Source: an uncultured Planctomycetales bacterium
GTDB taxonomy: Bacteria > Omnitrophota > Gorgyraeia > Gygaellales > Profunditerraquicolaceae
Direction of reading: 5' to 3'
Length of the DNA stretch: 48,280 nucleotides
Assembly: GCA_964593005.1 (NCBI GenBank)
Contig: CAZQGT010000004.1
Coordinates: 1-48,280 of the forward strand
Shown here: in pieces, positions 2,876-38,055 of the stretch
Layout: each line of letters starts with the position of its first letter
How positions within the stretch are numbered: the first letter of the stretch is position 1
The notes under the pieces: generated by a model
The model's input: only the letters and a program-made list of their open reading frames with translations
Told to the model about the DNA's origin: nothing
Database searches by the model: none
Program-made: the position numbers and the translations under genes

Positions 2876-3295
2876 TTATACTTTATAAACTTTATCCCCT
2901 TGCCTGACTCTGGAGCTTACCAGGAGCCCTATTTCATCGCCTTTCTTAGCTCTTGAGATATCTATCCGGTCTATCTGCATTGAGCTTATAATTTGAACCA
3001 GGTCCGTGGTGTGCCCCATTATCTTCACTGTGTTTCCTATGTTTAATGGTTTTTTTAGCTTGATTACTGCTGCTTGAACATGTGGGAAATAATGTGTAAT
3101 TAAGCCCACAAGATTGCCTTCTTGTTTAGCCGGTTTTTTCCCTGCGGGTTTAGCTCTTTTTACGGCTGGTTTACGTTTTTTTAAGGCAGGTTTTTTTCTT
3201 ACTATTTTTTTCTTAATTGGTCGTTTTTTTGGCGTTTTCTTTGTTGTTTTCTTAGCCGCCTTCTTGACTTTCTTCCCCTTTTTCTTCAAAGCCAT
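2876..3295 (-). CDS. Lys-rich (histone H1-like) N-terminus fused to an EF-Tu domain II-like / U32 peptidase C-terminal-like beta-barrel
   Basis: About 58 aa of K/A/P repeats, then G.ITHYF....AVI.L...L.IG..V.I.G.TTD..Q.I.SMQID...I..A..GDEIG..V..RVR.GD.VY. Strong RBS (AAGGAGGTG). Confidence 0.8.
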   Translation of the reverse strand: MALKKKGKKVKKAAKKTTKKTPKKRPIKKKIVRKKPALKKRKPAVKRAKPAGKKPAKQEGNLVGLITHYFPHVQAAVIKLKKPLNIGNTVKIMGHTTDLVQIISSMQIDRIDISRAKKGDEIGLLVSSRVRQGDKVYKV

Positions 3296-3319: not shown

Positions 3320-3646
3320 CTAAAGGATAACTTTCTCAGATATTTCGGTTATTACCGGTATACGGCAGTATATCCCAAGTGCTGCCTGCATAATACCCCA
3401 TATGGAGATTAAAAGGAATACCGCATAACCGAAAACTCCGATTAACCAGCCTAATAACGGTATAATTGATAGTATAAAAGCTGCAACTTCCATAACAAAA
3501 AGAACTAAACCCTGCTTGGCATGGTAAAGGGCGAATTTATTATCTTTTTTTAAGGCCAGGGTTATGATACAAAGGAAAGAAGCATAAGAAATTACAGCGA
3601 AGAATTTGCCTTCGCGGACTATATCTTCTTCAAAAGTTTGTGCCAT
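3320..3646 (-). CDS. Small membrane protein (DUF4870/Tic20-like)
   Basis: A.ISY...KDNKFALYHAKQGLVLF...IP.LGW...GI.QA..G...RIP pattern with 3 hydrophobic segments. The start was moved to the ATG at 3646 (GAGG RBS). Confidence 0.8.
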   Translation of the reverse strand: MAQTFEEDIVREGKFFAVISYASFLCIITLALKKDNKFALYHAKQGLVLFVMEVAAFILSIIPLLGWLIGVFGYAVFLLISIWGIMQAALGIYCRIPVITEISEKVIL

Positions 3647-3653
3647 AGTTTCC

Positions 3654-4748
3654 TCAGGTTTTAATCTCAAGCAGTGAGTCCATGGTCCCGTAAGGATTAA
3701 CCTGCTTTAGCGGGTTGTTCGGGTCTTCGGACCAGTTTCCATCAATCACAAAGCGGTAACGGTATTTTCCGCTGTTAAGGTTTATTCTTTTACTCCAAGA
3801 CCCGTTATTTTGTTCCATACGGCTGTTTTCATCCAGCTTCCAGTTATTAAATTCGCCGGCCAGATAAACTTCTTTTGCTTCAGGCGCCTTAACTGTAAGG
3901 GTGGTTTCATTTAACTTAGGTAAGGTTTCTTTCAAGATCTCATTCATCCTTTTTTCCAGTGTTTTTTCAGCAGCAGCCTCTCTGAAAGAGGGATTTTCCT
4001 GGGTAATTATTTCACGTGAAAGGCTGAAATAATCTTTTGCCCCGCGGCAGTATTTGTCGTAGGTAAAGACATTTAAGCCCTCATTCTGCGCTTCCTTTAG
4101 TTTTACATTTACATGTATAATATTTGAGAACATTTTTTCTTGGTAGTCAGCCTTAATTTTGTCCAGCATTTTAAAAGAGTGCTGCAGGCGGGAGTCAAAA
4201 TTAGTAACTAATACGCGGAAGCCTACATTGTGGTTTAACCTTGTGTTGACCAGCTCAATAATGCTGGTTAACTGGCTTAATCCTTCAAGAGAAAATCTGC
4301 TGGCTTCAACGGGAATAATGATTTCATTGGCTGAACGGATAGCGTTAATCGTCAGTATTCCCAGATTCGGCGGGCAATCAATCAGTATATAGTCATAGTT
4401 ATTTTTGAAGTTATTCAGGGTTTCGTAAAGCCGGCTTTCACGGCCGATTTCTCCGCTTAATTCCTGCTCCAGGGTGCTTAATATCAGGCTGGATGGCGCG
4501 ATATCAAAATTTTCACCCAGGTTCTGAATGATTTCGTCTAACCGGCATTTCTTATGAGTAATTTTAGAAAGCACATTATATATGCTTAAATCTGATTTAA
4601 TATTAAGGCCGCTGGTTGCGTGTGCTTGCGGGTCAAGGTCAATAAGCAGTACTTTGCGGTTATTCGCCGCCAGGGCAGCCGCTAAATTTATGGAAGTTGT
4701 TGTTTTGCCGCATCCGCCTTTTTGATTAGCGATTGATATAATACGCAT
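3654..4748 (-). CDS. ParA/Soj-family ATPase fused to a C-terminal AMPK-beta-type glycogen-binding domain (CBM48)
   Basis: Deviant Walker A KGGCGKTT, DLDPQ and DCPP. The C-terminal ~85 aa read APEAKEVYLAGEFNNW...W...L..GKYRYRFVIDGNW..DPNNP...NPYG. Confidence 0.92.
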   Translation of the reverse strand: MRIISIANQKGGCGKTTTSINLAAALAANNRKVLLIDLDPQAHATSGLNIKSDLSIYNVLSKITHKKCRLDEIIQNLGENFDIAPSSLILSTLEQELSGEIGRESRLYETLNNFKNNYDYILIDCPPNLGILTINAIRSANEIIIPVEASRFSLEGLSQLTSIIELVNTRLNHNVGFRVLVTNFDSRLQHSFKMLDKIKADYQEKMFSNIIHVNVKLKEAQNEGLNVFTYDKYCRGAKDYFSLSREIITQENPSFREAAAEKTLEKRMNEILKETLPKLNETTLTVKAPEAKEVYLAGEFNNWKLDENSRMEQNNGSWSKRINLNSGKYRYRFVIDGNWSEDPNNPLKQVNPYGTMDSLLEIKT

Positions 4749-4773: not shown

Positions 4774-5346
4774 TTATTTAGTTACCTTAATATTATCTAT
4801 ATAGACAATCCCTGATTTTTCTTTAGCGTTCCATTCCTCAACGCTAAAAGACAGGATTTTCATTTGTTCCCAATTATTTATTTTTGCAAAACGGGTTAAA
4901 TCAACCTGATGGTTTGTCCATTTGGCCGGAATGTCTTTTACATAAACTTCCGCTTTTTCGTTGAAACGGTTGATGAATTCAATTTTTAAAGCAATAGTAT
5001 CTTTAGGGTTAACTTTTCTAGCCGCAAAACAGAGGGTTTTGTATTTTGAAAGGTTTAATTGCTTGAGCTCAAGCGAAAAAGTTTCTTTTTTAGCAGGATC
5101 AAAGTTGAAATTCAATTTTGCCGTGTCTTGGAATAAAAACAGGGAAATTTGAGCGTTTTGGTTTCGGTAATTAAGATGAGAATACGCTACCCCGCTGCCC
5201 AAACCTAAAACCAGGAGTAATCCGACGAGGATTATTTTGCGGATTGGTTTCGGAGATGACTTTGATTTACGTTTTCTCTTTGATGATTTAGAAGAGGCAT
5301 CCAGGTAAATATTCGCCAGATGCTCGTAGATTTCTTTCTTATCCAT
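4774..5346 (-). CDS. Single-pass membrane protein with a galactose-binding-like/CBM11-like beta-sandwich domain
   Basis: Basic N-terminal tail and one TM helix (IILVGLLLVLGLGSGVAY), then NLSKYKTL.F..R...LKIEF...W....VDL..F...W.....F.......SGIVYIDNI. Confidence 0.7.
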   Translation of the reverse strand: MDKKEIYEHLANIYLDASSKSSKRKRKSKSSPKPIRKIILVGLLLVLGLGSGVAYSHLNYRNQNAQISLFLFQDTAKLNFNFDPAKKETFSLELKQLNLSKYKTLCFAARKVNPKDTIALKIEFINRFNEKAEVYVKDIPAKWTNHQVDLTRFAKINNWEQMKILSFSVEEWNAKEKSGIVYIDNIKVTK

Positions 5347-5356
5347 ATGAAATTAT

Positions 5357-5385
5357 TTTATAACACAAAAGTCAAGCTGTGTCAA
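5357..5385 (-). promoter_or_regulatory. Sigma70-type promoter for the CBM-ParA/CBM48-DUF4870-Lys-rich operon
   Basis: TTGACA (5385-5380, overlapping the GH57 stop), 17 bp spacer, extended -10 TGtTATAAA. This would give a nearly leaderless mRNA. Confidence 0.6.
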
Positions 5386-6917
5386 GGGTTTAGATATGTT
5401 GGGGTATCCTGATTAATAAGTTTATAGAAATTAGTCAGGTGTATCCGAAACAGTCGGTCAAATGAGCCATCAGGGTCTTCTCCGGCCCACCAAAACCAAT
5501 CGCTCCCTTCTAAAATATACATTTGTTTTAAAGCCAGTTCATTTATCGGTTCTTTAGTTTTTTCTAATGCCTTTCTGGCGTCAGCTAGCCATTCCCAACA
5601 TTTAACTTTACTGGGATTTCCAATCCATTTGCCGAATTCACCGTAAATCCATGAGCCGGCGCTTAAACGTTTAATTTCATTTTCCGCGGGGTTGAGTTTC
5701 AAGTATTCACTTACCGTGGTTGTCTTAATAAAATCGCTATCCGAAAGACGCTGATAAAATAACTCCAGGAAATCATGGCCGTCATTACGGAAAAACTCCC
5801 AGGCGTTTTCTCCGTCCATAGCAATGGTAACCAGGGTATCTTTTCCCTTGAAAGCCCTATCTATATTCTCCAAATGGCCTATGAAATTATTTACCGCATC
5901 ATTTTCTTTCATCCCGTGGTAATTAAAACCGATTAAATCCGAAAGGTTGCGGTCACGAAAAACGATATTTAACTCTTTCCCCTTTCTTTTTAATAAATGA
6001 GGCTGATATAAAAGCCGGGTATTACGTTTCTTAATTTTTAGTGATTTAAAAAGGATTGCTTCATCCGTAACTATCCATTTTATTCCGGATTCAATTATAA
6101 ATGGAAGGATGTGCTCGCTGACTGCCTCTTCCGATGGCCACATACCTTCTGGGGCTCCGTCAAACTTTTGTTTATAGAATTCCACTGCGCTATCGATATG
6201 CCTCTTTGCATCAAGCGGGTAGTTAAATTCTTTCTTGGGTAGCGTGGTCTTTTTATTTGCTTCCTTGGCAATATTGGTGCTACATAATAAAGGTAAAATT
6301 GGATGATAATACGGCGTAACGCTGATTTCTATCTGGTTATTTTGTTTATAAAGACGGTATGCCGGGATAATTTCTTTTAATATGAGCAGCTGTTTCTCTA
6401 AGACAATATGTTTATCTTCTTCGCTAAAGAACCTTTCCTTGGCGGATATTTTCTTTAACTCCGGGATATTTTGCCTGAATGATGGGTCTATCCAGGCTAA
6501 GTTGAAATAGAGTTGCAGGTCAAGGTAGTCCTGGGGAGAAAACTCCTGTCCGCGCTGCCTTTTAAGGTATAGCTCATAATAACGCGGAAAAGTTGCGATT
6601 ACCCTCTCTCTGTTTATGGAAAAAAAATTCTGCAGGATGAAATCTTTATCGGATTTGGTTAATTCCTGAGCGGGTTTCTTGGTTAGTTCGCTGAATTTGT
6701 CTTTTACCAGGCCATTGTTATAGTCTTCCACCTGTTCGAATAAAGACGGGACAACATTAAAGGTTTGTTTAATTTTGGGGAATTTCTCTAAGATCTGCAC
6801 CATATCCAGGTAATCTTTAACCCCGTGCAGCCTTACCCAGGGCAAGTTACTCTCCTGTGTCAGGAGGTTCTTGTAATACGGCTGGTGCATATGAAAGATA
6901 AAGGCAAGATTTAGCAT
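5382..6917 (-). CDS. Glycoside hydrolase family 57 (amylopullulanase-like)
   Basis: HMHQP, LPWVRLH..KDY, TPYYHPILPLL, nucleophile region WPSEEAVS, acid/base region MDGENAWE, EGSDWFWW. Confidence 0.92.
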   Translation of the reverse strand: MLNLAFIFHMHQPYYKNLLTQESNLPWVRLHGVKDYLDMVQILEKFPKIKQTFNVVPSLFEQVEDYNNGLVKDKFSELTKKPAQELTKSDKDFILQNFFSINRERVIATFPRYYELYLKRQRGQEFSPQDYLDLQLYFNLAWIDPSFRQNIPELKKISAKERFFSEEDKHIVLEKQLLILKEIIPAYRLYKQNNQIEISVTPYYHPILPLLCSTNIAKEANKKTTLPKKEFNYPLDAKRHIDSAVEFYKQKFDGAPEGMWPSEEAVSEHILPFIIESGIKWIVTDEAILFKSLKIKKRNTRLLYQPHLLKRKGKELNIVFRDRNLSDLIGFNYHGMKENDAVNNFIGHLENIDRAFKGKDTLVTIAMDGENAWEFFRNDGHDFLELFYQRLSDSDFIKTTTVSEYLKLNPAENEIKRLSAGSWIYGEFGKWIGNPSKVKCWEWLADARKALEKTKEPINELALKQMYILEGSDWFWWAGEDPDGSFDRLFRIHLTNFYKLINQDTPTYLNP

Positions 6918-6988: not shown

Positions 6989-8311
6989 TTAGAATGTTAC
7001 TTTCATTGAACCGATTAACTGAGTTGCAGCCTTCTCATTATCTGAGAGAGCATTGCCAGCTTTAAACATACCACCGGTTAAGGCAAACTGTACATCTTCA
7101 GTATAATCATAGGCAGCGGTAATATCCAGGGCATCGCCAAGGTGTTTTTTACCAGTGTAGGTGGCGCCGCTTAGATAAGTACTGCTTCCATCATAAGAAG
7201 ATGGGCTGTTAAAAGTTGATCCAGGATGTTTTTCAGCTACATCATAGTAACCGTAGACAGCTGATAATGTAACATCTTCAACTGGTTTACAGCTAGCTTT
7301 TAGATTCAAAGCGCTCATATTGGTAAAAGGTAAAAGCGCATATACGATGTTGTTAAGCTGTTGATTGTAGAACATGGAATCCCATCCTTCATTTCTGGTG
7401 CCACTAGATTCGCCACCAGAAAGATATGTCCAGGAAGCTCCGATCTTAGGAGTCATTTTTACTTTAGCAAAGGTGTAATCTGCCATTGCCTGAATAGCCC
7501 AAGCATCGTGTTTTTTCTGTCCAGCTGTAGCAGTGTTTTTTCCAAACTGATAAGCAGCTTCTAATGAAGCTGTTAAATTCTCAATCGGTGTGGTAGAAAC
7601 TAAACCGCCGATTGTGTTAACCTTATCTTTTTTGTCACCGCTTGTAGTGTTATCTTTCTTTATCCAGTAATAACCGGAAACATTAACCTTTGAATTTAAT
7701 GTGTAGGTAGCGTTAACACCAGCTAAGCTGATTGTGTCTCTGTCAGTTGTTGTGCTTTGTTTAACTTGAGCATAAACCAAATCCACAACTAATGGATCAT
7801 AGTCTAAGGTAGCGCGTATTGCATCAAATGCGGCTCTCTTAGAAAGATCAGTAGGTATGCTGGTTGTTCCACTAGCTGCACCTGATTTTCCAATTACCAA
7901 ACTATTGCCAAAGCTAATTTCCTGGCGACCAATAGTTAAGCTCAAAGGAGAATACAGGAATTCTTTTAAGGTAACATAAGCAAGATCTAAATCAATGTTG
8001 GTATTATTGTTGCCAGACTCGGTGTCATTCTGCCCGTTCCAGATTCTTTCATTGATTAATCTTACAGTAGCCATAACATTATCAGTAAGATCTGCGTCAA
8101 TACGCACCCTTGTTTGAGTCATTAGAAAAGTTTGTTTCAGGGCGCTTTTGTCACCATCGGTTTGATATCTTAAACCAAAATGGCTTCTTGCTACACCACT
8201 TGCTGTGATGTCACCACTTACCTTTACATTCTGAACTTCGGCGTAGACAGGGCTAAATACTAACCCGGCTACCAAAGCAAGCGCTAATACTATAATCAAG
8301 CGTTTACCCAT
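6989..8311 (-). CDS. Outer-membrane beta-barrel porin (alginate-export-family-like)
   Basis: Signal peptide (..VYA-EV), alternating amphipathic beta strands, LTIGRQEI.FG and FDAIR motifs, C-terminal Phe (MKVTF). Strong RBS. Confidence 0.82.
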   Translation of the reverse strand: MGKRLIIVLALALVAGLVFSPVYAEVQNVKVSGDITASGVARSHFGLRYQTDGDKSALKQTFLMTQTRVRIDADLTDNVMATVRLINERIWNGQNDTESGNNNTNIDLDLAYVTLKEFLYSPLSLTIGRQEISFGNSLVIGKSGAASGTTSIPTDLSKRAAFDAIRATLDYDPLVVDLVYAQVKQSTTTDRDTISLAGVNATYTLNSKVNVSGYYWIKKDNTTSGDKKDKVNTIGGLVSTTPIENLTASLEAAYQFGKNTATAGQKKHDAWAIQAMADYTFAKVKMTPKIGASWTYLSGGESSGTRNEGWDSMFYNQQLNNIVYALLPFTNMSALNLKASCKPVEDVTLSAVYGYYDVAEKHPGSTFNSPSSYDGSSTYLSGATYTGKKHLGDALDITAAYDYTEDVQFALTGGMFKAGNALSDNEKAATQLIGSMKVTF

Positions 8312-8410: not shown

Positions 8411-8438
8411 ATTTTACATATAACTCTTTAATTGTCAA
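8411..8438 (-). promoter_or_regulatory. Sigma70 promoter of the porin gene
   Basis: TTGACA-16 bp-TAAAAT on the minus strand. Confidence 0.7.
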
Positions 8439-8471: not shown

Positions 8472-8522
8472 TAATAGGGACAGCGACCATTATCCAAACG
8501 ATAATGGTCGCTGTCCCTATTA
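8472..8522. repeat. Palindromic element copy 1 (23-bp perfect inverted repeat)
   Basis: TAATAGGGACAGCGACCATTATC-caaac-GATAATGGTCGCTGTCCCTATTA, nearly identical to 25937-25986. Confidence 0.85.
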
Positions 8523-32376: not shown

Positions 32377-35300
32377 TTAACGGACGCTATCTGCGATTAC
32401 AATTGCCTCTTTAATATTTGCATCTGTAGGAATAGCCATATCTTCTTCCAGTTTGCAAATACGCATTAAACAGCTGACTAGTTCTTCCTGATGATTGGCT
32501 AATTCTTGTTTATGGTAACAGGCTCCTATCAGTTCTTTAATTCTTTCACTGCTGGGAGCAATGCCGTTGTCAACCATTTGAGATATTTCAATCAGTTCTT
32601 TGTTGATGTTAATTTGAGTAAGCGTGGCAGCCGGAGGTAAAGAAAAGGTTAATCCTTCAAAACTTCCTACTGCTTGGATATTCATGGGTAGGATACGGAA
32701 GTCAATACCGCCTCGTTTTGACTTTTCAGTGTTTATTGGTGAACTGGAAGTAGATTCAAAGAGTTGCTGCGCGCGGTTAAAAATACCAAATGCAGTTATT
32801 AATCCGTCAAAAGTAGAAATGTCAGGTAATGTTACTATTGCGACATCGCGGAAAAATCTCTTTTTATATGTTTCTCCCTGATAATTTATAGCGTCAGTCG
32901 TAACATCCCCGCTCAATGAGCGAAATTCCGCCTTTAAAAATTGCCTGCGTTCTTCATCGGGATAAGCCCCATCAAGATAGTCATTAGCAAGGCCATAGGT
33001 GCTGATTTTGCTTTCAGATTGCACAACTGCTTCGTAAGATTTCACAAAATCTACAAGCAGAGTAAAGACAGCATCATTACCATCAAGGCGGCCCTGGAAA
33101 TTGGCATGCTGGTCACGAGTTCCGATACCATAATCAATGCTTTGCAGCATTTCTCCAAGAATATCTGCGTTAGGGTAAGCAGTATAAAAAACAGGAGAAA
33201 CTACTTTTTTCTTGCCTCGGGCGATCAGCATAAGGGTGGCTAATTTTCTAGCAGCTTCCTCCATCTGGTTGTCAGATAGTTTACCTTTTCCATAACCACG
33301 GATTGATTTATACAATTCATATATCTGTTCATCATTTTTTTCGATAAGAAGTTGAATTTGGATCCTTTTGTCATTGTTTTCTTCTATAGCAAGTTTCATT
33401 TTTGCAGCAAGTTCTTCGTTTTTATGTTTAAGATTATTAATTTCATTAATGGTAGAAACTAATTTAGCAAAAGATATGGAATCTTCGGCGCTTACCGAAA
33501 TATTCTCATCTGCTTGAACTAAATTTATTGCTGTTTCTTGAAGCAACTTATTTTTTTCTTCGGCAGAGAGATTCGTTTCTCTTTCCTGATCAGTTAAGTT
33601 TATTTCTTCATCAAGAATATATTCCCCGTTTTTAATACGTTTTTCAACATCCATATATCTGGCTCTGGTTGCCTCATCGGATTTATCAAGGGTGCTCAAA
33701 ACACTTACCAATACTCCTTTGGCTAGCTCTACCATGGGTTGATTCTGGGGATCCCTTAACCACCAAAAATTAGGCTTATTTTCTAAAACCGATTTATTCA
33801 TTAATGCGGCGCCTACTACTGGTATATTTAAGGTTATGTTGTTTTCTGCAACCAGATCAGCTAAGCTTAACAGGCCATAACGCACGGTAAACTCCTGAAA
33901 CCAAAGGGCAAATTTAGCGTTGGCAAGAGGCGATATCTCTTCTTTAAAATAGCGTATTACAGGAACATCTTGCGGGACTGCCATAGGCGCAAATCCCTTT
34001 TGCTCTACCACTATAACTAAGGGGGCTTTACCGGTTTGTTGTTTTATTTGTCCAATCTTTCTATTCATTTCTTCTTGTCCTGCGCTGACTACTACCCAGA
34101 TACCTTGTCCGTCTTTACCGTTGCTTTCCGGGAATAATTGTTCTTTCTGTAGAGCTTCGGAAGTGGCATTGGAACTACGCACAGATACCAGCATAACCGG
34201 AGGATTAAGCTTACGTGTTAAAATAGCAGCACGCAACGCGCTATTTTTTTCCGGGTTGTTTCCGTCCGTCCCCCAATAATTACTTGCTTGTTTTTGCAGT
34301 CCTTCAGTTATTTGAGTAATATTCAATCCCTGAAATGCTTGTGTAACGGATCCGGATTCACAGTTTTCTGTGAATCTTCCGCCAGTATATTCGGAGAAAT
34401 CAAAGACAGAAATATTAGCTATTTTTAATTCCTTCATTCCCAAGGCAAAGGCGTAAAGCCGGCTGGCATCCGGATTTAAGGACGTAGTAAATACTATTCT
34501 TTCTAAAACCTTGCCTATAGCCAGGCGCTCTTTTTCATTAAATTGCTGGTTAAAATCATCGACAGGAATTCCTTTAAAAAGCGCGCTCTTAGATTTTCCA
34601 TTATTAAAATCTTTTAGGAATGCGCTAAATCTTACTGATAATGCCTGCGCGTCTTTAGGAGTCATTCCCTCCGCTATTCCCATAAGCCTCAGGAATTCAT
34701 TTAAACTTTCCTGATATATAGTTAAAGGTTCATCGGTACTTCCAGATTTAGAACTTGCGTGTAAGACTATTTCATAAATGTTATATCCTGAGTTTAAAAG
34801 ATTCTGGAAAAGCTGTTTAATGCTTACTCCTATCCTGTCTAAAACTATGATTTTTGCTTCTTTATCTTCTCCCCAGTATTCTGCTTGGACACTGTTGGAT
34901 TTTCCTTGGCCGCCTATGCCAATATGCAGCATAACTTTAGCGCCATTATTTTTAACCTGTGAAACCCATTCTGTTATAGGCTTGCGGTTGTCCATTCTCA
35001 AAGCGCCATTGGGATCTTTATATCCAAAACGCGAGTTAAGCTGACCCGTAGGTTCAGGATATTGTTTTATTTCTCCGGTAAGCTCATAATTAGCTGCTAA
35101 TTTAACCGGCAAACTATTGAAAACTTCCGGATCGGTTTCTTCAAAACCTTCAAAGGCGATCGTTGCATCTTGATATCTCATCGGTGGATTTACCGGCGAA
35201 CTGGAAGTATTGCCACTGACAATATTATCTAGCGTATTCTGTACACTAATATAATCGTTGGAAAACGCAGTTGTGGCATTCTTAAGCAGAATGGCGCCTA

Positions 35301-38055
35301 TCCGGGTTATATTGGCGTTACCTTTTGAGATCAAATCCATAATTTCAAGGCTTGAATCGTAACCGGATTCAATGGTTTTAGCTATACTGCCATCGTCATT
35401 TTTAGCAATGCCGTTTTCAATTAAATATTTTATAGTTGGGGTATAGGGAAGAGTATTTACGATAAGCGTACCCTGCAACGGATGAACATATATCCCCGCG
35501 GGATAAGCAGCAGCAATTTTTTCAGTAATGACACCTTTTTTAAGCATATCCGCGCCTTTTGATCCGGTAGAAGCAAGCAGGAATTCCTGAGGGTTAACTT
35601 CTAGACCAATGGCATTGGCATCTGTTTTTAATTTATTCCAAGTTGGATTTTTATCACTGAAGGAATTCTTAAATATTTCATTGTATGCCTTTATGGCAAT
35701 AGCGTTAGCTACCTGGCCATGGGCGTTTTCAGGTGTGAGATTGTTCTCTTCAAAATATACATCCCAGCGGGATATAAAAAAGCTGGCTACAGAATATACA
35801 CGGTTAAACTCATCTTTGCTTAGCCTGCCTTCTTTTACGTTAATTAAGCCGCGTTGTAAACCGCGGATATATGCGTCAACAACCTTTTGATAATGCTCTG
35901 GGGTAAAGATCAACGTTACGTTGACATTCCGTCCGCGGGAGATTACTTCTTCTATTATCTTGTATCCGATGTGATTATCAATACCATCTGCATCAGAGCT
36001 CAAAGCGACTTTGATCATCATATGTGTTGGGTTAATGTCTGTCCAAAGTAGCGCCTCTTTTAATGCTTCCGCGACGTCTGCATTATTAACCGCAGGGTTA
36101 AGTTCAACACTGAATTTGGCGTCTTTTATGCCAGCTTTCTCAAAAATTTCCAACGCGGTTTTAGCTAATTCACTGACAAGCTGATAGTAGATAGTCTTCT
36201 TATCTAAACCTTGAGCTGCCAATTCTTTTGCCTTATCAATTACTCGTTGGTCGCTAAAATAGGCCTTGATCAGAGAAGGATTGGTAGTAACCCCGTTTAT
36301 GCCATGGGTGCGTACTAAGTTCTCAAATTCTCCGGAAAGCAGCATCTCAAAAGTCAGGCCGTCAAGCCAGATCCTCTGGTTGATGTCGGCGTAAACACGT
36401 AAGGATGTGACCGGTTGGATAGAAATTGGACTTGAAGAAGACGGCTCAAGGAATACCTGAAAATCATCCTCGGTAGACTGACCCAGTTCTTTACTGACCT
36501 CCCCATTGGCAACTGCTGTCAAGCTGAGAGTGTTATTATTAGTATTATGAGTTATTTTAATATTGGCATGGAATCCTTTTCTTTTATATTCCCATTCGTT
36601 GGAATTTGTAGGATAGATGTTCTCTCCAGATAGCCATAGCGAAATGTTTTGTCCCAAAACTTCATTTTTCGTTTTTGCCTCAAAAAGCAGCCATCTTTTA
36701 TCGCTATCAGAGAAATATTGATAGACAGCTATTCGTGCTTTTCCTTTTGCCATTTCCGCTGGAATAGGGCTGATTGTGAGAGAATTATTACTATGGTTTC
36801 TGGAAGTAAACATACCCAAACTTTGAGATATCATTGGGCTTGAGCTGATTCCCTGGGAAAGCGAGATAGGGTTATTGATAGTTGCTGTGCCAAAGAAAGG
36901 CACCAGGCCGTTTTTGGTGGCCGCAGCCATAAATACGGGGTTAGAGCTGGAACCGGTGAACCCGGCAATTATTGGGCTGCTTCCCTTGTTTTGCGAGGTA
37001 ATGTTCATATTGGCGCTGAATTCAAGGCCGCCGCTGAAGTAGCTTCTGATCGATGGTCCGGATAATGCGTTTATGTTAGTTTTAAGGTTATATTCACCAT
37101 TTTTAAAGGATGTTTGATATTGTTCGAAATAGGTATTTTTTGACCAGGTTTCTTTAGAGGTAAGTCCCTGGAGATTGGATTTATTAATATAGGAAGCATA
37201 TAAACCACCCTTGCCATAGAACCTTGATTTAAACCAGCGGGCCAGAATTAATGAATAGTAAACCTGTCTAAGGGCAGCATAGTTTTTATCATTGTTGACC
37301 TTTTTTACTAATTCTGGAAGGATAAATTCACGGATAAGTTGAGATGAGTATTCGTTGAGTTCTTTTGCGCGGTTGTCTTCAAAGTTATAATTTGCGGATT
37401 CTTTTAAGTGGTCTTGCTCAAGCAACACTTTTAAGGTTGCCTTATAAATATACGCACTGTTGCCTTCGGCTTCGCGTATGATGATTTCACCGGGCACAAT
37501 CCAGGGCCGGGTTAATGTCGGAATATTTACATTTTGAGTGCCATAGATCTGGTTTGCTCTTTCATAAAGTTTATCCCAATATAATTTTCCAAGCGGGGAA
37601 TCAGGTGTAGTGAGGCTAGCCGTGTCTTTTTTTAGCTGGACATCCGCTTCAAGGAATACTTTACCGATATCGGTTTTAGCCAGTTCATCCTGAATAATAT
37701 TATCTGCTGAATCAGGACGCAGGTTTACCCAGAAGCTATCATCAGGAAGAGTCACCCCAATAAGGAAATATTTTAAAAGTTCTTTTCCTGATTCTTCAAG
37801 TTTTAAATCTTTTAAGTCCTTCAGGTCCCCTTTATCCAAAAGGAGCTGGATGTTATTTGAGGTATTATCATAAGAAAGATACCTTAAGTGCGGCAGGCGA
37901 AGCTTGTTTTGTGTAATGTTTGGCCCAAGACTGGCAAAATGCGAGCTAAGGTTAAGTTCAGCTGCTACTTGAGCAAAACCAGTTTGAGTGAAGAAAAGGA
38001 TGAAAGATAGAAACAGCGATAAGACCTTACGGGTGAGATTTACTTTGCTTGCCAT
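32377..38055 (-). CDS. Large exported modular protein: N-terminal domain / unknown domain / transaldolase / phosphoglucose-isomerase-like / GGIDF C-terminal domain, separated by SSP linkers
   Basis: Signal peptide (RKVLSLFLSFILFFTQTGFA). Transaldolase motifs: IWLD, GVTTNPS, MMIKV, NVNVTLIF, SVASFFISR.D, ASTGSK. PGI/SIS motifs: IGIGG, SKSGST.E, GGRF, EQLF.ES.GK, NQP.VE.AK, DQH. Confidence 0.85.
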   Translation of the reverse strand: MASKVNLTRKVLSLFLSFILFFTQTGFAQVAAELNLSSHFASLGPNITQNKLRLPHLRYLSYDNTSNNIQLLLDKGDLKDLKDLKLEESGKELLKYFLIGVTLPDDSFWVNLRPDSADNIIQDELAKTDIGKVFLEADVQLKKDTASLTTPDSPLGKLYWDKLYERANQIYGTQNVNIPTLTRPWIVPGEIIIREAEGNSAYIYKATLKVLLEQDHLKESANYNFEDNRAKELNEYSSQLIREFILPELVKKVNNDKNYAALRQVYYSLILARWFKSRFYGKGGLYASYINKSNLQGLTSKETWSKNTYFEQYQTSFKNGEYNLKTNINALSGPSIRSYFSGGLEFSANMNITSQNKGSSPIIAGFTGSSSNPVFMAAATKNGLVPFFGTATINNPISLSQGISSSPMISQSLGMFTSRNHSNNSLTISPIPAEMAKGKARIAVYQYFSDSDKRWLLFEAKTKNEVLGQNISLWLSGENIYPTNSNEWEYKRKGFHANIKITHNTNNNTLSLTAVANGEVSKELGQSTEDDFQVFLEPSSSSPISIQPVTSLRVYADINQRIWLDGLTFEMLLSGEFENLVRTHGINGVTTNPSLIKAYFSDQRVIDKAKELAAQGLDKKTIYYQLVSELAKTALEIFEKAGIKDAKFSVELNPAVNNADVAEALKEALLWTDINPTHMMIKVALSSDADGIDNHIGYKIIEEVISRGRNVNVTLIFTPEHYQKVVDAYIRGLQRGLINVKEGRLSKDEFNRVYSVASFFISRWDVYFEENNLTPENAHGQVANAIAIKAYNEIFKNSFSDKNPTWNKLKTDANAIGLEVNPQEFLLASTGSKGADMLKKGVITEKIAAAYPAGIYVHPLQGTLIVNTLPYTPTIKYLIENGIAKNDDGSIAKTIESGYDSSLEIMDLISKGNANITRIGAILLKNATTAFSNDYISVQNTLDNIVSGNTSSSPVNPPMRYQDATIAFEGFEETDPEVFNSLPVKLAANYELTGEIKQYPEPTGQLNSRFGYKDPNGALRMDNRKPITEWVSQVKNNGAKVMLHIGIGGQGKSNSVQAEYWGEDKEAKIIVLDRIGVSIKQLFQNLLNSGYNIYEIVLHASSKSGSTDEPLTIYQESLNEFLRLMGIAEGMTPKDAQALSVRFSAFLKDFNNGKSKSALFKGIPVDDFNQQFNEKERLAIGKVLERIVFTTSLNPDASRLYAFALGMKELKIANISVFDFSEYTGGRFTENCESGSVTQAFQGLNITQITEGLQKQASNYWGTDGNNPEKNSALRAAILTRKLNPPVMLVSVRSSNATSEALQKEQLFPESNGKDGQGIWVVVSAGQEEMNRKIGQIKQQTGKAPLVIVVEQKGFAPMAVPQDVPVIRYFKEEISPLANAKFALWFQEFTVRYGLLSLADLVAENNITLNIPVVGAALMNKSVLENKPNFWWLRDPQNQPMVELAKGVLVSVLSTLDKSDEATRARYMDVEKRIKNGEYILDEEINLTDQERETNLSAEEKNKLLQETAINLVQADENISVSAEDSISFAKLVSTINEINNLKHKNEELAAKMKLAIEENNDKRIQIQLLIEKNDEQIYELYKSIRGYGKGKLSDNQMEEAARKLATLMLIARGKKKVVSPVFYTAYPNADILGEMLQSIDYGIGTRDQHANFQGRLDGNDAVFTLLVDFVKSYEAVVQSESKISTYGLANDYLDGAYPDEERRQFLKAEFRSLSGDVTTDAINYQGETYKKRFFRDVAIVTLPDISTFDGLITAFGIFNRAQQLFESTSSSPINTEKSKRGGIDFRILPMNIQAVGSFEGLTFSLPPAATLTQININKELIEISQMVDNGIAPSSERIKELIGACYHKQELANHQEELVSCLMRICKLEEDMAIPTDANIKEAIVIADSVR

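Follow-up and report, generated by a model that had tools for sequence, protein, structure and literature searches.

The 48,280-nucleotide stretch considered here (contig CAZQGT010000004.1, positions 1 to 48,280; hereafter the window) belongs to a metagenome-assembled genome (MAG) of Candidatus Omnitrophota with a size of 1.64 Mb, 113 contigs and a completeness of 93.65%. Members of this phylum are very small bacteria that are uncultured and may depend on a host. The genomes of the close relatives are small (1.0-2.5 Mb). On the minus strand, near the beginning of the window, a single gene joins a ParA/Soj-type ATPase to a family 48 carbohydrate-binding module (CBM48) of the kind carried by the beta subunit of AMP-activated protein kinase (AMPK). 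Its parts were delimited computationally as follows.

3654..4748, minus strand: ParA-CBM48 fusion gene, an intact open reading frame (ORF) of 364 amino acids plus stop, with Pfam matches to AAA_31 and to AMPK1_CBM/CBM_48
3999..4748, minus strand: ParA/Soj ATPase core, residues 1-250, aligned end to end with 8RAY, Thermus thermophilus Soj and Helicobacter pylori Soj
3912..3998, minus strand: linker, residues 251-279, a low-confidence helix in the AlphaFold2 (AF2) model
3657..3911, minus strand: AMPK-beta-type CBM48, residues 280-364, delimited by Pfam, by alignment with the AMPK beta1 module and by the AF2 model

An earlier reading of the same DNA, made from the sequence alone and referred to below as the sequence-only reading, had described an intact ParA core fused to a CBM48 through a linker of about 30 residues. 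The ORF, the domain matches and the presence of every motif it quoted confirm this description. In Pfam, AAA_31 covers residues 1-175 (E 3.9e-57) and CbiA residues 4-226, while AMPK1_CBM covers residues 290-363 (E 1.4e-14, 54.5 bits against a cut-off of 26.8) and CBM_48 residues 280-340 (26.6 bits against 22.4). The NCBIfam model ParA_partition gives 113.5 bits, under its cut-off of 180. The core carries a deviant Walker A motif with the signature lysine (KGGCGKTT, K10 and K15), a Walker A' motif (DLDPQ, D37 and D39) and a Walker B motif (DCPP, D124), followed by FDSR (R187) and NVKLKEA (K216, K218); the sugar-binding motifs are FNNW (W303) and DGNW (W339).

Residues 2-250 align over the full length of solved chromosomal ParA/Soj proteins: Myxococcus xanthus ParA (8RAY, PMC12462528; E 1.5e-51, 178.8 bits), T. 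thermophilus Soj (1WCV/2BEK; E 5.6e-39, 137.5 bits) and H. pylori Soj (6IUB; E 6.7e-35). McdA, the carboxysome-positioning ATPase, reaches only 51.9 bits. The core is nearest to chromosomal ParA/Soj, not to MinD or BcsQ. The AF2 model, computed with 19 orthologs as input (mean pLDDT 82.4), consists of a confident ParA core (residues 1-249), a long low-confidence helix at 253-279 (pLDDT 45-57) and a confident beta-sandwich at 281-362 (pLDDT 88-93).

Basic residues at the positions by which Soj binds DNA non-specifically had also been claimed. When the T. thermophilus Soj alignment is used to map the residue table of PMC6393308, basic residues occupy three of the four positions of the patch: R187, K199 and K216 correspond to Bacillus subtilis Soj R189, K201 and R218. 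According to the same table, mutation of R189 or R218 affects DNA binding in B. subtilis (PMC6393308). At the other end of the protein, residues 290-363 align best with the glycogen-binding domains of AMPK beta1 and beta2 (E 5e-12 to 3e-9), followed by the CBM48 modules of pullulanases and of SEX4/LSF1. In AMPK beta1, residues W100, K126, W133, L146 and T148 are described as touching the carbohydrate, and their mutation as lowering glycogen binding (PMC2642990). In the alignment with 1Z0N they fall on W303, R332, W339, Y353 and T355, so both sugar-stacking tryptophans are kept, as the sequence-only reading had stated. Neither a signal peptide nor a transmembrane (TM) segment was found in the fusion sequence, and the ligand should therefore be cytoplasmic.

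These residues are strongly conserved in 41 fusions from across the phylum, namely the window protein and 40 fetched ones. Invariant in all 41 are K10, K15, T16, D37, D39, D124 and R187 in the ATPase core and W303, W318, Y331, W339 and G354 in the CBM. Among the other patch residues, K218 is always basic (41/41), K199 in 35/41 and K216 in 28/41. In the CBM, the position of R332 is basic in 36/41, that of Y353 is Y or F in 41/41, and that of T355 is variable. The linker is 30-120 amino acids long and, across families, only 10-50% identical to that of the window protein. Compared in pairs, the ParA cores are on average 55.3% identical and the CBMs 50.0%, and fusion pairs with cores 30-45% identical have the same identity, 41.9%, in both domains. 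By these figures the pace of divergence is about as low in the CBM as in the ATPase core.

Within the genus, substitution rates point the same way. Among ten same-genus genes, the median ratio of nonsynonymous to synonymous substitutions (dN/dS, NG86 method) is 0.035 for the ParA core, 0.071 for the CBM48 and 0.14 for the linker, from 18-32 usable pairs out of 45 for the fusion domains, with dS at 0.9-1.7, near saturation, and pairs with dS >3 dropped. These ratios indicate purifying selection on the fusion, including its CBM. A chance fusion or a mis-assembly was considered and is ruled out, as more than 120 protein clusters, and likewise the 41 aligned fusions, keep the same frame unbroken.

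The fusion is an orphan ParA. A second ParA, encoded on contig C31 of the same genome, is 44% identical to the ATPase of the fusion; its gene is located directly upstream of a gene for a full ParB (ParB_N, HTH_ParB and ParB_C), beside yidC. This ParB accounts for the sole ParB_N match in a profile search of the genome. Because of this separate parA-parB pair by yidC and the single ParB, the fusion is not the ParA of the chromosome, and the possibility, raised in the sequence-only reading, that it is the only ParA of the genome no longer applies. The absence of parB and parS from the neighbourhood, also claimed, agrees with the results: Pfam found no ParB domain in any scanned ORF of the window, and the parS consensus has no match in the window at up to two mismatches. 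The consensus is also unmatched genome-wide at up to one mismatch, so the parS result for the window says little; the parS of this organism is probably divergent.

That the gene lies beside dif is plausible. At 2284-2311, a 28-nucleotide intergenic stretch occupies the convergent junction between dinB (plus strand) and a DUF134 gene (minus strand), and from 2394 onwards every large ORF of the window is on the minus strand. The stretch is identical (28/28) in seven of eight same-genus loci and matches at 23/28 positions in the eighth; by likeness to a consensus only, it may be a dif (XerCD) site. On its other side, positions 2-2089 of the plus strand hold a cassette of lexA, a 102-amino-acid ORF with a weak DUF6504 match, and dinB, which adjoins the ParA-CBM48 module in 8/20 loci of the same order.

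The fusion is widespread in the phylum. In a draw of 301 Omnitrophota genomes it was matched at E <= 1e-65 in 178, and in 151/248 of the high-quality ones, which answers the question of its conservation raised in the sequence-only reading. Among 40 relatives, it was found in 21/24 genomes of the same genus and in 10/16 from other families of the same order. In the phylum draw, some families carry it throughout or nearly so (f1 36/41, f11 14/15, f19 6/7, f25 4/4, f29 7/7, f30 8/8), and in others it was not found (f12 0/17, f16 0/7, f15 0/5, f17 0/5). Identity to the window protein follows taxonomic rank, from 78-93% in the genus through 63-76% in the family and 57-64% in the order down to 38% in another class. 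This pattern indicates vertical, clade-structured inheritance with losses in some lineages.

Every one of the 120 closest homolog clusters (>=79% identity) is 360-375 amino acids long and has PF16561. Among 150 match rows listed, 135 extend to residue 360 or further, 13 end at residues 250-280 within longer frames, and two are halves of one gene divided between two contigs. Three of the 13 short matches were fetched, and all three are fusions with linkers of 68-120 amino acids. Named homologs are all proteins of 'Candidatus Omnitrophota/Omnitrophica' MAGs, and their only annotations are chromosome partitioning protein and AAA family ATPase. Among the best 80 of 542 relatives, nearly all are Omnitrophota; a 377-amino-acid fusion from a MAG labelled Thermodesulfobacteriota is the one case outside the phylum in this set.

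Some same-genus absences are probably assembly gaps, since in G006, G010 and G013 a neighbouring conserved PHP-domain gene is likewise missing. In G033, GH57 stands at a contig end. None of these four absences was counted as a loss. In G026, GH57, the gene for the membrane protein TM190 and the fusion gene are gone together as one clean block with conserved flanks; the porin gene is followed directly by the DUF4870-like gene, and glgA is kept.

These neighbours form a probable operon with the fusion gene. On the minus strand the order, with the intervening gaps in nucleotides, is porin, 71, GH57, 35, TM190, 25, ParA-CBM48, 7, DUF4870-like, 24, Lys-rich, 134, DUF134.

8411..8438, minus strand: promoter-like site upstream of the porin gene, by consensus match only (11/12)
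6989..8311, minus strand: outer-membrane porin-like protein of the Alginate_exp family (Pfam E 6.9e-36), first gene of the probable operon
5382..6917, minus strand: GH57 glycoside hydrolase, amylopullulanase-like (Pfam E 3.5e-63)
4774..5346, minus strand: TM190, a single-pass membrane protein (AF2 model, Foldseek and ortholog alignment)
3320..3646, minus strand: small DUF4870-like membrane protein of 108 amino acids counted from M9, with a weak Pfam DUF4870 match (E 2.9e-4)
2876..3295, minus strand: Lys-rich protein with a histone-H1-like tail (sequence and ortholog alignment)

The sequence-only reading had named a GH57 enzyme, a CBM-like membrane protein and a porin as neighbours, and Pfam, AF2 and Foldseek identify all three. 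No convincing terminator was found inside the cluster. A perfect hairpin with a 20-bp stem lies at 8474-8520, between an upstream 156-amino-acid ORF and the promoter-like site; it may be a terminator or regulatory element bounding the operon.

TM190 is the most constant partner of the fusion. A conserved N-terminal helix, whose residues Y7, L10, A11 and Y14 vary little or not at all, is followed by a basic stretch, a single TM helix and a beta-sandwich. Because the basic stretch precedes the TM helix, the N-terminus is probably cytoplasmic and the sandwich outside. In the AF2 model (pLDDT 83.5 overall, above 90 in the sandwich), the sandwich resembles most closely, by Foldseek, the modules CBM11 1v0a (E 1.1e-6), CBM30 1wzx, CBM29 and similar ones. 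In the same-order synteny set (20 loci from 19 genomes), TM190 lies immediately upstream of the fusion gene in 20/20 loci, as it does in 9/9 other loci of the same class, and in some loci the stop and start codons of the two genes overlap. Across families TM190 is 25-44% identical, compared with 56-62% for the fusion; the median dN/dS of its outer domain is 0.10 within the genus. Among 11 more distant loci, a TM190 profile matches the upstream gene in two (E 6.6e-7 and 3e-4), both with weak Pfam CBM30 matches that stay under the cut-off of 27 (24.4 and 20.2 bits); on inspection, a third shows the same arrangement. The protein was not found in any of five genomes without a match to the fusion. 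A complex of two ParA cores (residues 1-255), two ATP and TM190 residues 1-36 was predicted with a score of 0.01 against a mark of 0.32, which speaks neither for nor against binding.

The fusion also occurs without such a partner. In three of these 11 loci, from family f11 (L065, L066 and L069), it has no TM-CBM neighbour and its surroundings are quite different: judged by their N-terminal sequences, the preceding genes look purL-/purQ-like, and the following ones may encode a small membrane protein, a LOG-like and an mnmG-like protein. Locus L157 likewise has no TM-CBM neighbour. The remaining five of the 11, from families f51/f57 (L070-L074), whose fusions are 37-39% identical, have an uncharacterised downstream pair: an ORF of 252-301 amino acids that opens with a KLKRGLKDIS-x-LF-like motif, then one of 175-233 amino acids, neither of them with a Pfam match.

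The other neighbours are less constant. The porin gene is upstream of the module in 12/20 same-order and 8/9 other same-class loci, the DUF4870-like gene is present in 13/20 and 8/9, and the Lys-rich gene is downstream in 18/20 and 8/9. Orthologs of the DUF4870-like protein begin at the position of M9. The tail of the Lys-rich protein varies in length, and its C-terminal, small beta-barrel-like domain is highly conserved. In the Atlas it neighbours small proteins labelled 'translation elongation factor family' (EF-Tu domain 2-like; score 0.93), which is a lead only; it may be a nucleoid protein belonging to the module.

GH57 stands beside the module in 17/19 informative same-order loci as against 1/9 other same-class loci. 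GH57, which the sequence-only reading had listed among alpha-glucan-related neighbours, is therefore not a constant partner of the fusion. Among solved structures it is closest to the GH57 amylopullulanase of Aquifex aeolicus (8zyi/9iht, E 5e-86), an enzyme described as hydrolysing glycogen (PMC12106739). The protein opens directly with the catalytic region and has no signal peptide, which places it in the cytoplasm; its median dN/dS within the genus is 0.042, from 6 usable pairs of 28. A function as a branching enzyme was considered and rejected: at E <= 1e-5 just two solved relatives appeared, the Aquifex amylopullulanase and a further GH57 entry, and nothing labelled as a branching enzyme was among the matches.

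The rest of the window is housekeeping: PPDK, a sigma-70 factor, several aminoacyl-tRNA synthetases, DnaE, GroES/EL, UvrB, GuaA/B, RecO, HU and LexA/DinB. No defence or mobile genes were found in the 48 kb, where PADLOC gave only a P-loop match (22.4 bits), and the Pfam-scanned ORFs of the operon include no polysaccharide synthase or transporter. At 32377-38055 (minus strand) there is a 1892-amino-acid ORF in which Pfam recognises nothing but a transaldolase domain (residues 562-939), leaving about 1500 residues unexplained.

Regarding the supposed ligand, the host genome has glgA (536.9 bits; cut-off 328) as well as two GH57 genes and one glucan phosphorylase gene. Glycogen synthesis in Omnitrophota has been inferred from genomes, as stated in PMC8542988. 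In the phylum draw, glgA is present in 173/178 fusion genomes and in 274/301 of all, and the association between the two (173 with and 5 without, versus 101 and 22) is significant by Fisher's test (p 1.5e-5), although the genomes are related. Apart from the fusion, the genome encodes one further AMPK1_CBM protein, a stand-alone CBM48 of 91 amino acids on contig C42 of G000 (L003:1501-1776, plus strand), between lpxI and a radical-SAM gene (AMPK1_CBM E 1e-17, 40% identical to the CBM of the fusion).

Proteins that attach non-DNA cargo to the nucleoid are known from other bacteria. As summarised in PMC13052382, orphan ParA/MinD-type ATPases such as McdA, with its partner McdB, are presumed to position non-DNA cargo, in this case carboxysomes, with the nucleoid serving as their matrix. 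PhaM, PhaF and PhaH for polyhydroxybutyrate (PHB) and AlgP for polyphosphate are described there as bifunctional tethers, single polypeptides with a granule-binding and a non-specifically DNA-binding end, by which the granules are spread on the nucleoid and inherited by the daughter cells (PMC13052382). The fusion resembles both kinds and equals neither. In McdAB the adaptor is a separate protein that activates the ATPase, whereas here the cargo module is fused, no cargo-borne activator is seen, the sequence likeness to McdA is low and the cargo would be a polysaccharide. The PHB and polyphosphate tethers are unrelated in sequence and have histone-like or helix-hairpin-helix domains and are not known to use ATP, whereas the DNA-binding end of the fusion would be an ATP-switched ParA and its granule glycogen. 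Compared with chromosomal ParA/Soj itself, the fusion differs in having the C-terminal linker and CBM48 and no adjacent ParB or parS. The CBM of AMPK beta (1Z0M/1Z0N), its best match and likewise cytoplasmic, is described as an allosteric sensor on a kinase scaffold (PMC2642990), but that of the fusion is attached to a P-loop ATPase, has Y or F at the position equivalent to L146 and is variable at that of T148.

The reading preferred here, held tentatively and with a likelihood somewhat short of even, is that the fusion may tether or position glycogen on the nucleoid with ATP as the switch; it would be a chromosome-type ParA ATPase that contains its own cargo adaptor. We infer dimerisation, DNA binding, glucan binding and tethering by the fusion, as well as any role of TM190, from the sequences. 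With ATP, the protein would form a sandwich dimer via the signature lysine K10 and bind the nucleoid non-specifically through the basic patch R187, K199, K216 and K218. Each subunit would carry a CBM48 on a flexible linker, and the invariant tryptophans of the CBM would grip cytoplasmic alpha-glucan, putatively glycogen particles. Many such dimers could tether glycogen to the chromosome, so that the store would be dispersed and passed to both daughters, and ATP hydrolysis would reset the tether. The best candidate for the hydrolysis trigger is the conserved cytoplasmic N-terminal helix of TM190, whose outer CBM-like domain could couple release to envelope glycans. In this order, the cytoplasmic GH57 of the same module would link tethering to glycogen breakdown.

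A stable endogenous ligand such as glycogen fits the constant ligand site, the phylum-deep family, the housekeeping context and the small genomes better than an arms-race target does. The sequence-only reading had proposed glycogen-granule partition, and the orphan status and the conserved motifs bear it out as far as they go; the constant membrane partner is left unexplained by it. Of the outcomes that it had named as speaking against it, none of those accessible to computation was observed. Several findings weigh against a nucleoid tether for glycogen. The fourth position of the DNA-binding patch (B. subtilis Soj R215, H. pylori Soj K227) is V213 in the window fusion and is non-basic in 40/41 fusions, basic in just 1/41, and the usual I-P-K/R-N loop reads I-H-V-N. 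No cargo-borne activator of the ATPase was found, the only constant partner being a membrane protein, and a ratchet in the style of McdAB is therefore unsupported; the extracytoplasmic domain of TM190 is not needed by a pure nucleoid-granule model. The linkage to GH57 is lineage-limited, as seen from the other loci of the class. In the host genome, glgC is not above its cut-off (best match 75 bits), and five fusion genomes have no glgA match at E <= 1e-70. Conversely, 101/123 genomes without the fusion have glgA, and family f12, lacking the fusion in all 17 genomes, has glgA in 16/17. Co-occurrence with glycogen genes, which the sequence-only reading had suggested surveying, is thus real but weakly discriminating because glgA is near-universal, and whole glgA-positive families without the fusion imply that the module is dispensable for glycogen metabolism. 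Finally, the same architecture has been read as an immune sensor in a recent preprint, discussed below.

The f12 matches to glgA lie in frames of about 1025-1038 amino acids, twice the usual length (G048, G095, G113, G176, G199, G265, G297, G301 and G314), and GlgA in this family seems to be fused to another domain.

The membrane partner gains prominence if the module is a glycan sensor or organiser linked to the membrane. TM190 would then read a glycan of the periplasm or envelope, perhaps one that comes in by way of the neighbouring porin, and signal via its N-terminal helix to ParA-CBM48, and the ParA switch would recruit, release or organise alpha-glucan metabolism at the membrane, with nucleoid binding secondary or absent, much as BcsQ does in cellulose synthesis or as the AMPK beta CBM acts as a sensor and not as a tether. 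This explanation is unlikely but deserves serious weight, because the fusion's constant partner sits in the membrane and has an outward CBM-like domain. It agrees with the position of TM190 directly upstream in all same-order and same-class loci, with the overlapping codons, with the lack of a TM190 match in the five fusion-less genomes, and with a cytoplasmic motif that is conserved and recurs in longer versions in distant families. The CBM11/CBM30-like fold of the outer domain and the weak CBM30 matches of distant versions are in line with it, as are the co-located porin, the sensor role of the AMPK module of the same type (PMC2642990), a weak Pfam CBP_BcsQ match in the fusion (37.4 bits) and the loss of the fourth patch residue. 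However, R187, the equivalent of the best-validated DNA-binding residue of Soj, is invariant and K218 always basic, and the core is nearest to chromosomal ParA. A CBM sits where a C-terminal membrane-targeting helix would be expected, the operon has no polysaccharide synthase or transporter, and the f11 loci and L157 manage without a TM-CBM neighbour. A regulator of the chromosome or the cell cycle, that is, a glycogen-sensing Soj paralogue coupling the carbon reserve to segregation or division via ParB/parS or via division or replication factors, would suit the 44% identity to the genome's own Soj, the closeness to chromosomal ParAs, the sensor role of AMPK-type CBMs in their best-known setting (PMC2642990) and the location near the conserved site at the convergent junction. 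It is very improbable: nothing links the fusion to ParB, neither parB nor parS is near it, its conserved neighbours are envelope and glucan proteins and not division or replication genes, and proximity to dif is common to many unrelated genes and gives way to other contexts in other families.

The immune explanation comes from a bioRxiv preprint (10.64898/2026.10.19.760177, 22 Oct 2026), which describes, under branch ConB5, a 'ParA-CBM' composed of ParA and a C-terminal AMPK1_CBM. From rapid divergence of the CBM and a sporadic distribution, its account of this branch infers an immune sensor; it also mentions another variant with an inactive ParA and an inactive restriction endonuclease (10.64898/2026.10.19.760177). 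The CBM of such an anti-phage or anti-plasmid conflict system would sense carbohydrates altered by infection, upon which ParA would multimerise and the invader would be limited. The window locus has the architecture of the first variant, including the upstream protein with a single TM pass, whose additional extracytoplasmic CBM the preprint describes as rapidly evolving, and this adjacency holds in 29/29 same-class loci. TM190 does diverge faster than its neighbours, and the differing gene set in other Omnitrophota classes may correspond to the second variant, in that the f51/f57 downstream pair may be its inactive ParA and endonuclease. Both features on which the immune inference rests are nevertheless missing in Omnitrophota, to which the comparison was confined, and for this reason the explanation is improbable here. 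The CBM is not fast-evolving, as its identity, its three invariant tryptophans and its dN/dS attest, and the outer domain of TM190 is under purifying selection as well. The distribution is not sporadic, with families at or near 100% and a gene that follows taxonomy. Furthermore, the genomes are small, the context is one of core genes with only a P-loop match in PADLOC, and no effector domain is present. The word Omnitrophota is absent from the main text of the preprint.

The statement in the sequence-only reading that no characterised system of this kind exists stands as far as experiments are concerned; as the architecture and the membrane-CBM neighbour already appear in the preprint under another interpretation, the system is not categorically new. 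A full-text literature search, in which the preprint was the one relevant hit, found no glycogen positioning system in print, and a 2025 review of bacterial organelle positioning, in the sections drawn on here, treats carboxysomes, magnetosomes, PHB and polyphosphate and does not mention glycogen (PMC13052382).

A stronger form of the tether reading has the module as a self-contained, ATP-driven system of glycogen partition and release, in which the TM190 tail fires the ATPase and the outer CBM reads glycans imported by the porin. This form is improbable. If true, the external sugar supply would decide when the store is held, shared or handed to GH57, and the module would be the first case of a ParA system whose cargo is a polysaccharide, whose adaptor is fused in cis and whose trigger acts across the envelope.

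Glycogen is the commonest bacterial carbon store, and the fusion, if it tethers glycogen as proposed, would be the first candidate for a glycogen-positioning factor. It would extend the ParA/MinD principle to polysaccharide cargo and imply that motor and adaptor can be joined in one protein. For the 'ParA-CBM' family, the Omnitrophota data, with vertical inheritance, a conserved ligand site and a housekeeping context, point away from immunity. For the Omnitrophota themselves, a conserved module of envelope, chromosome and carbon store may tell how such small cells manage their reserves.

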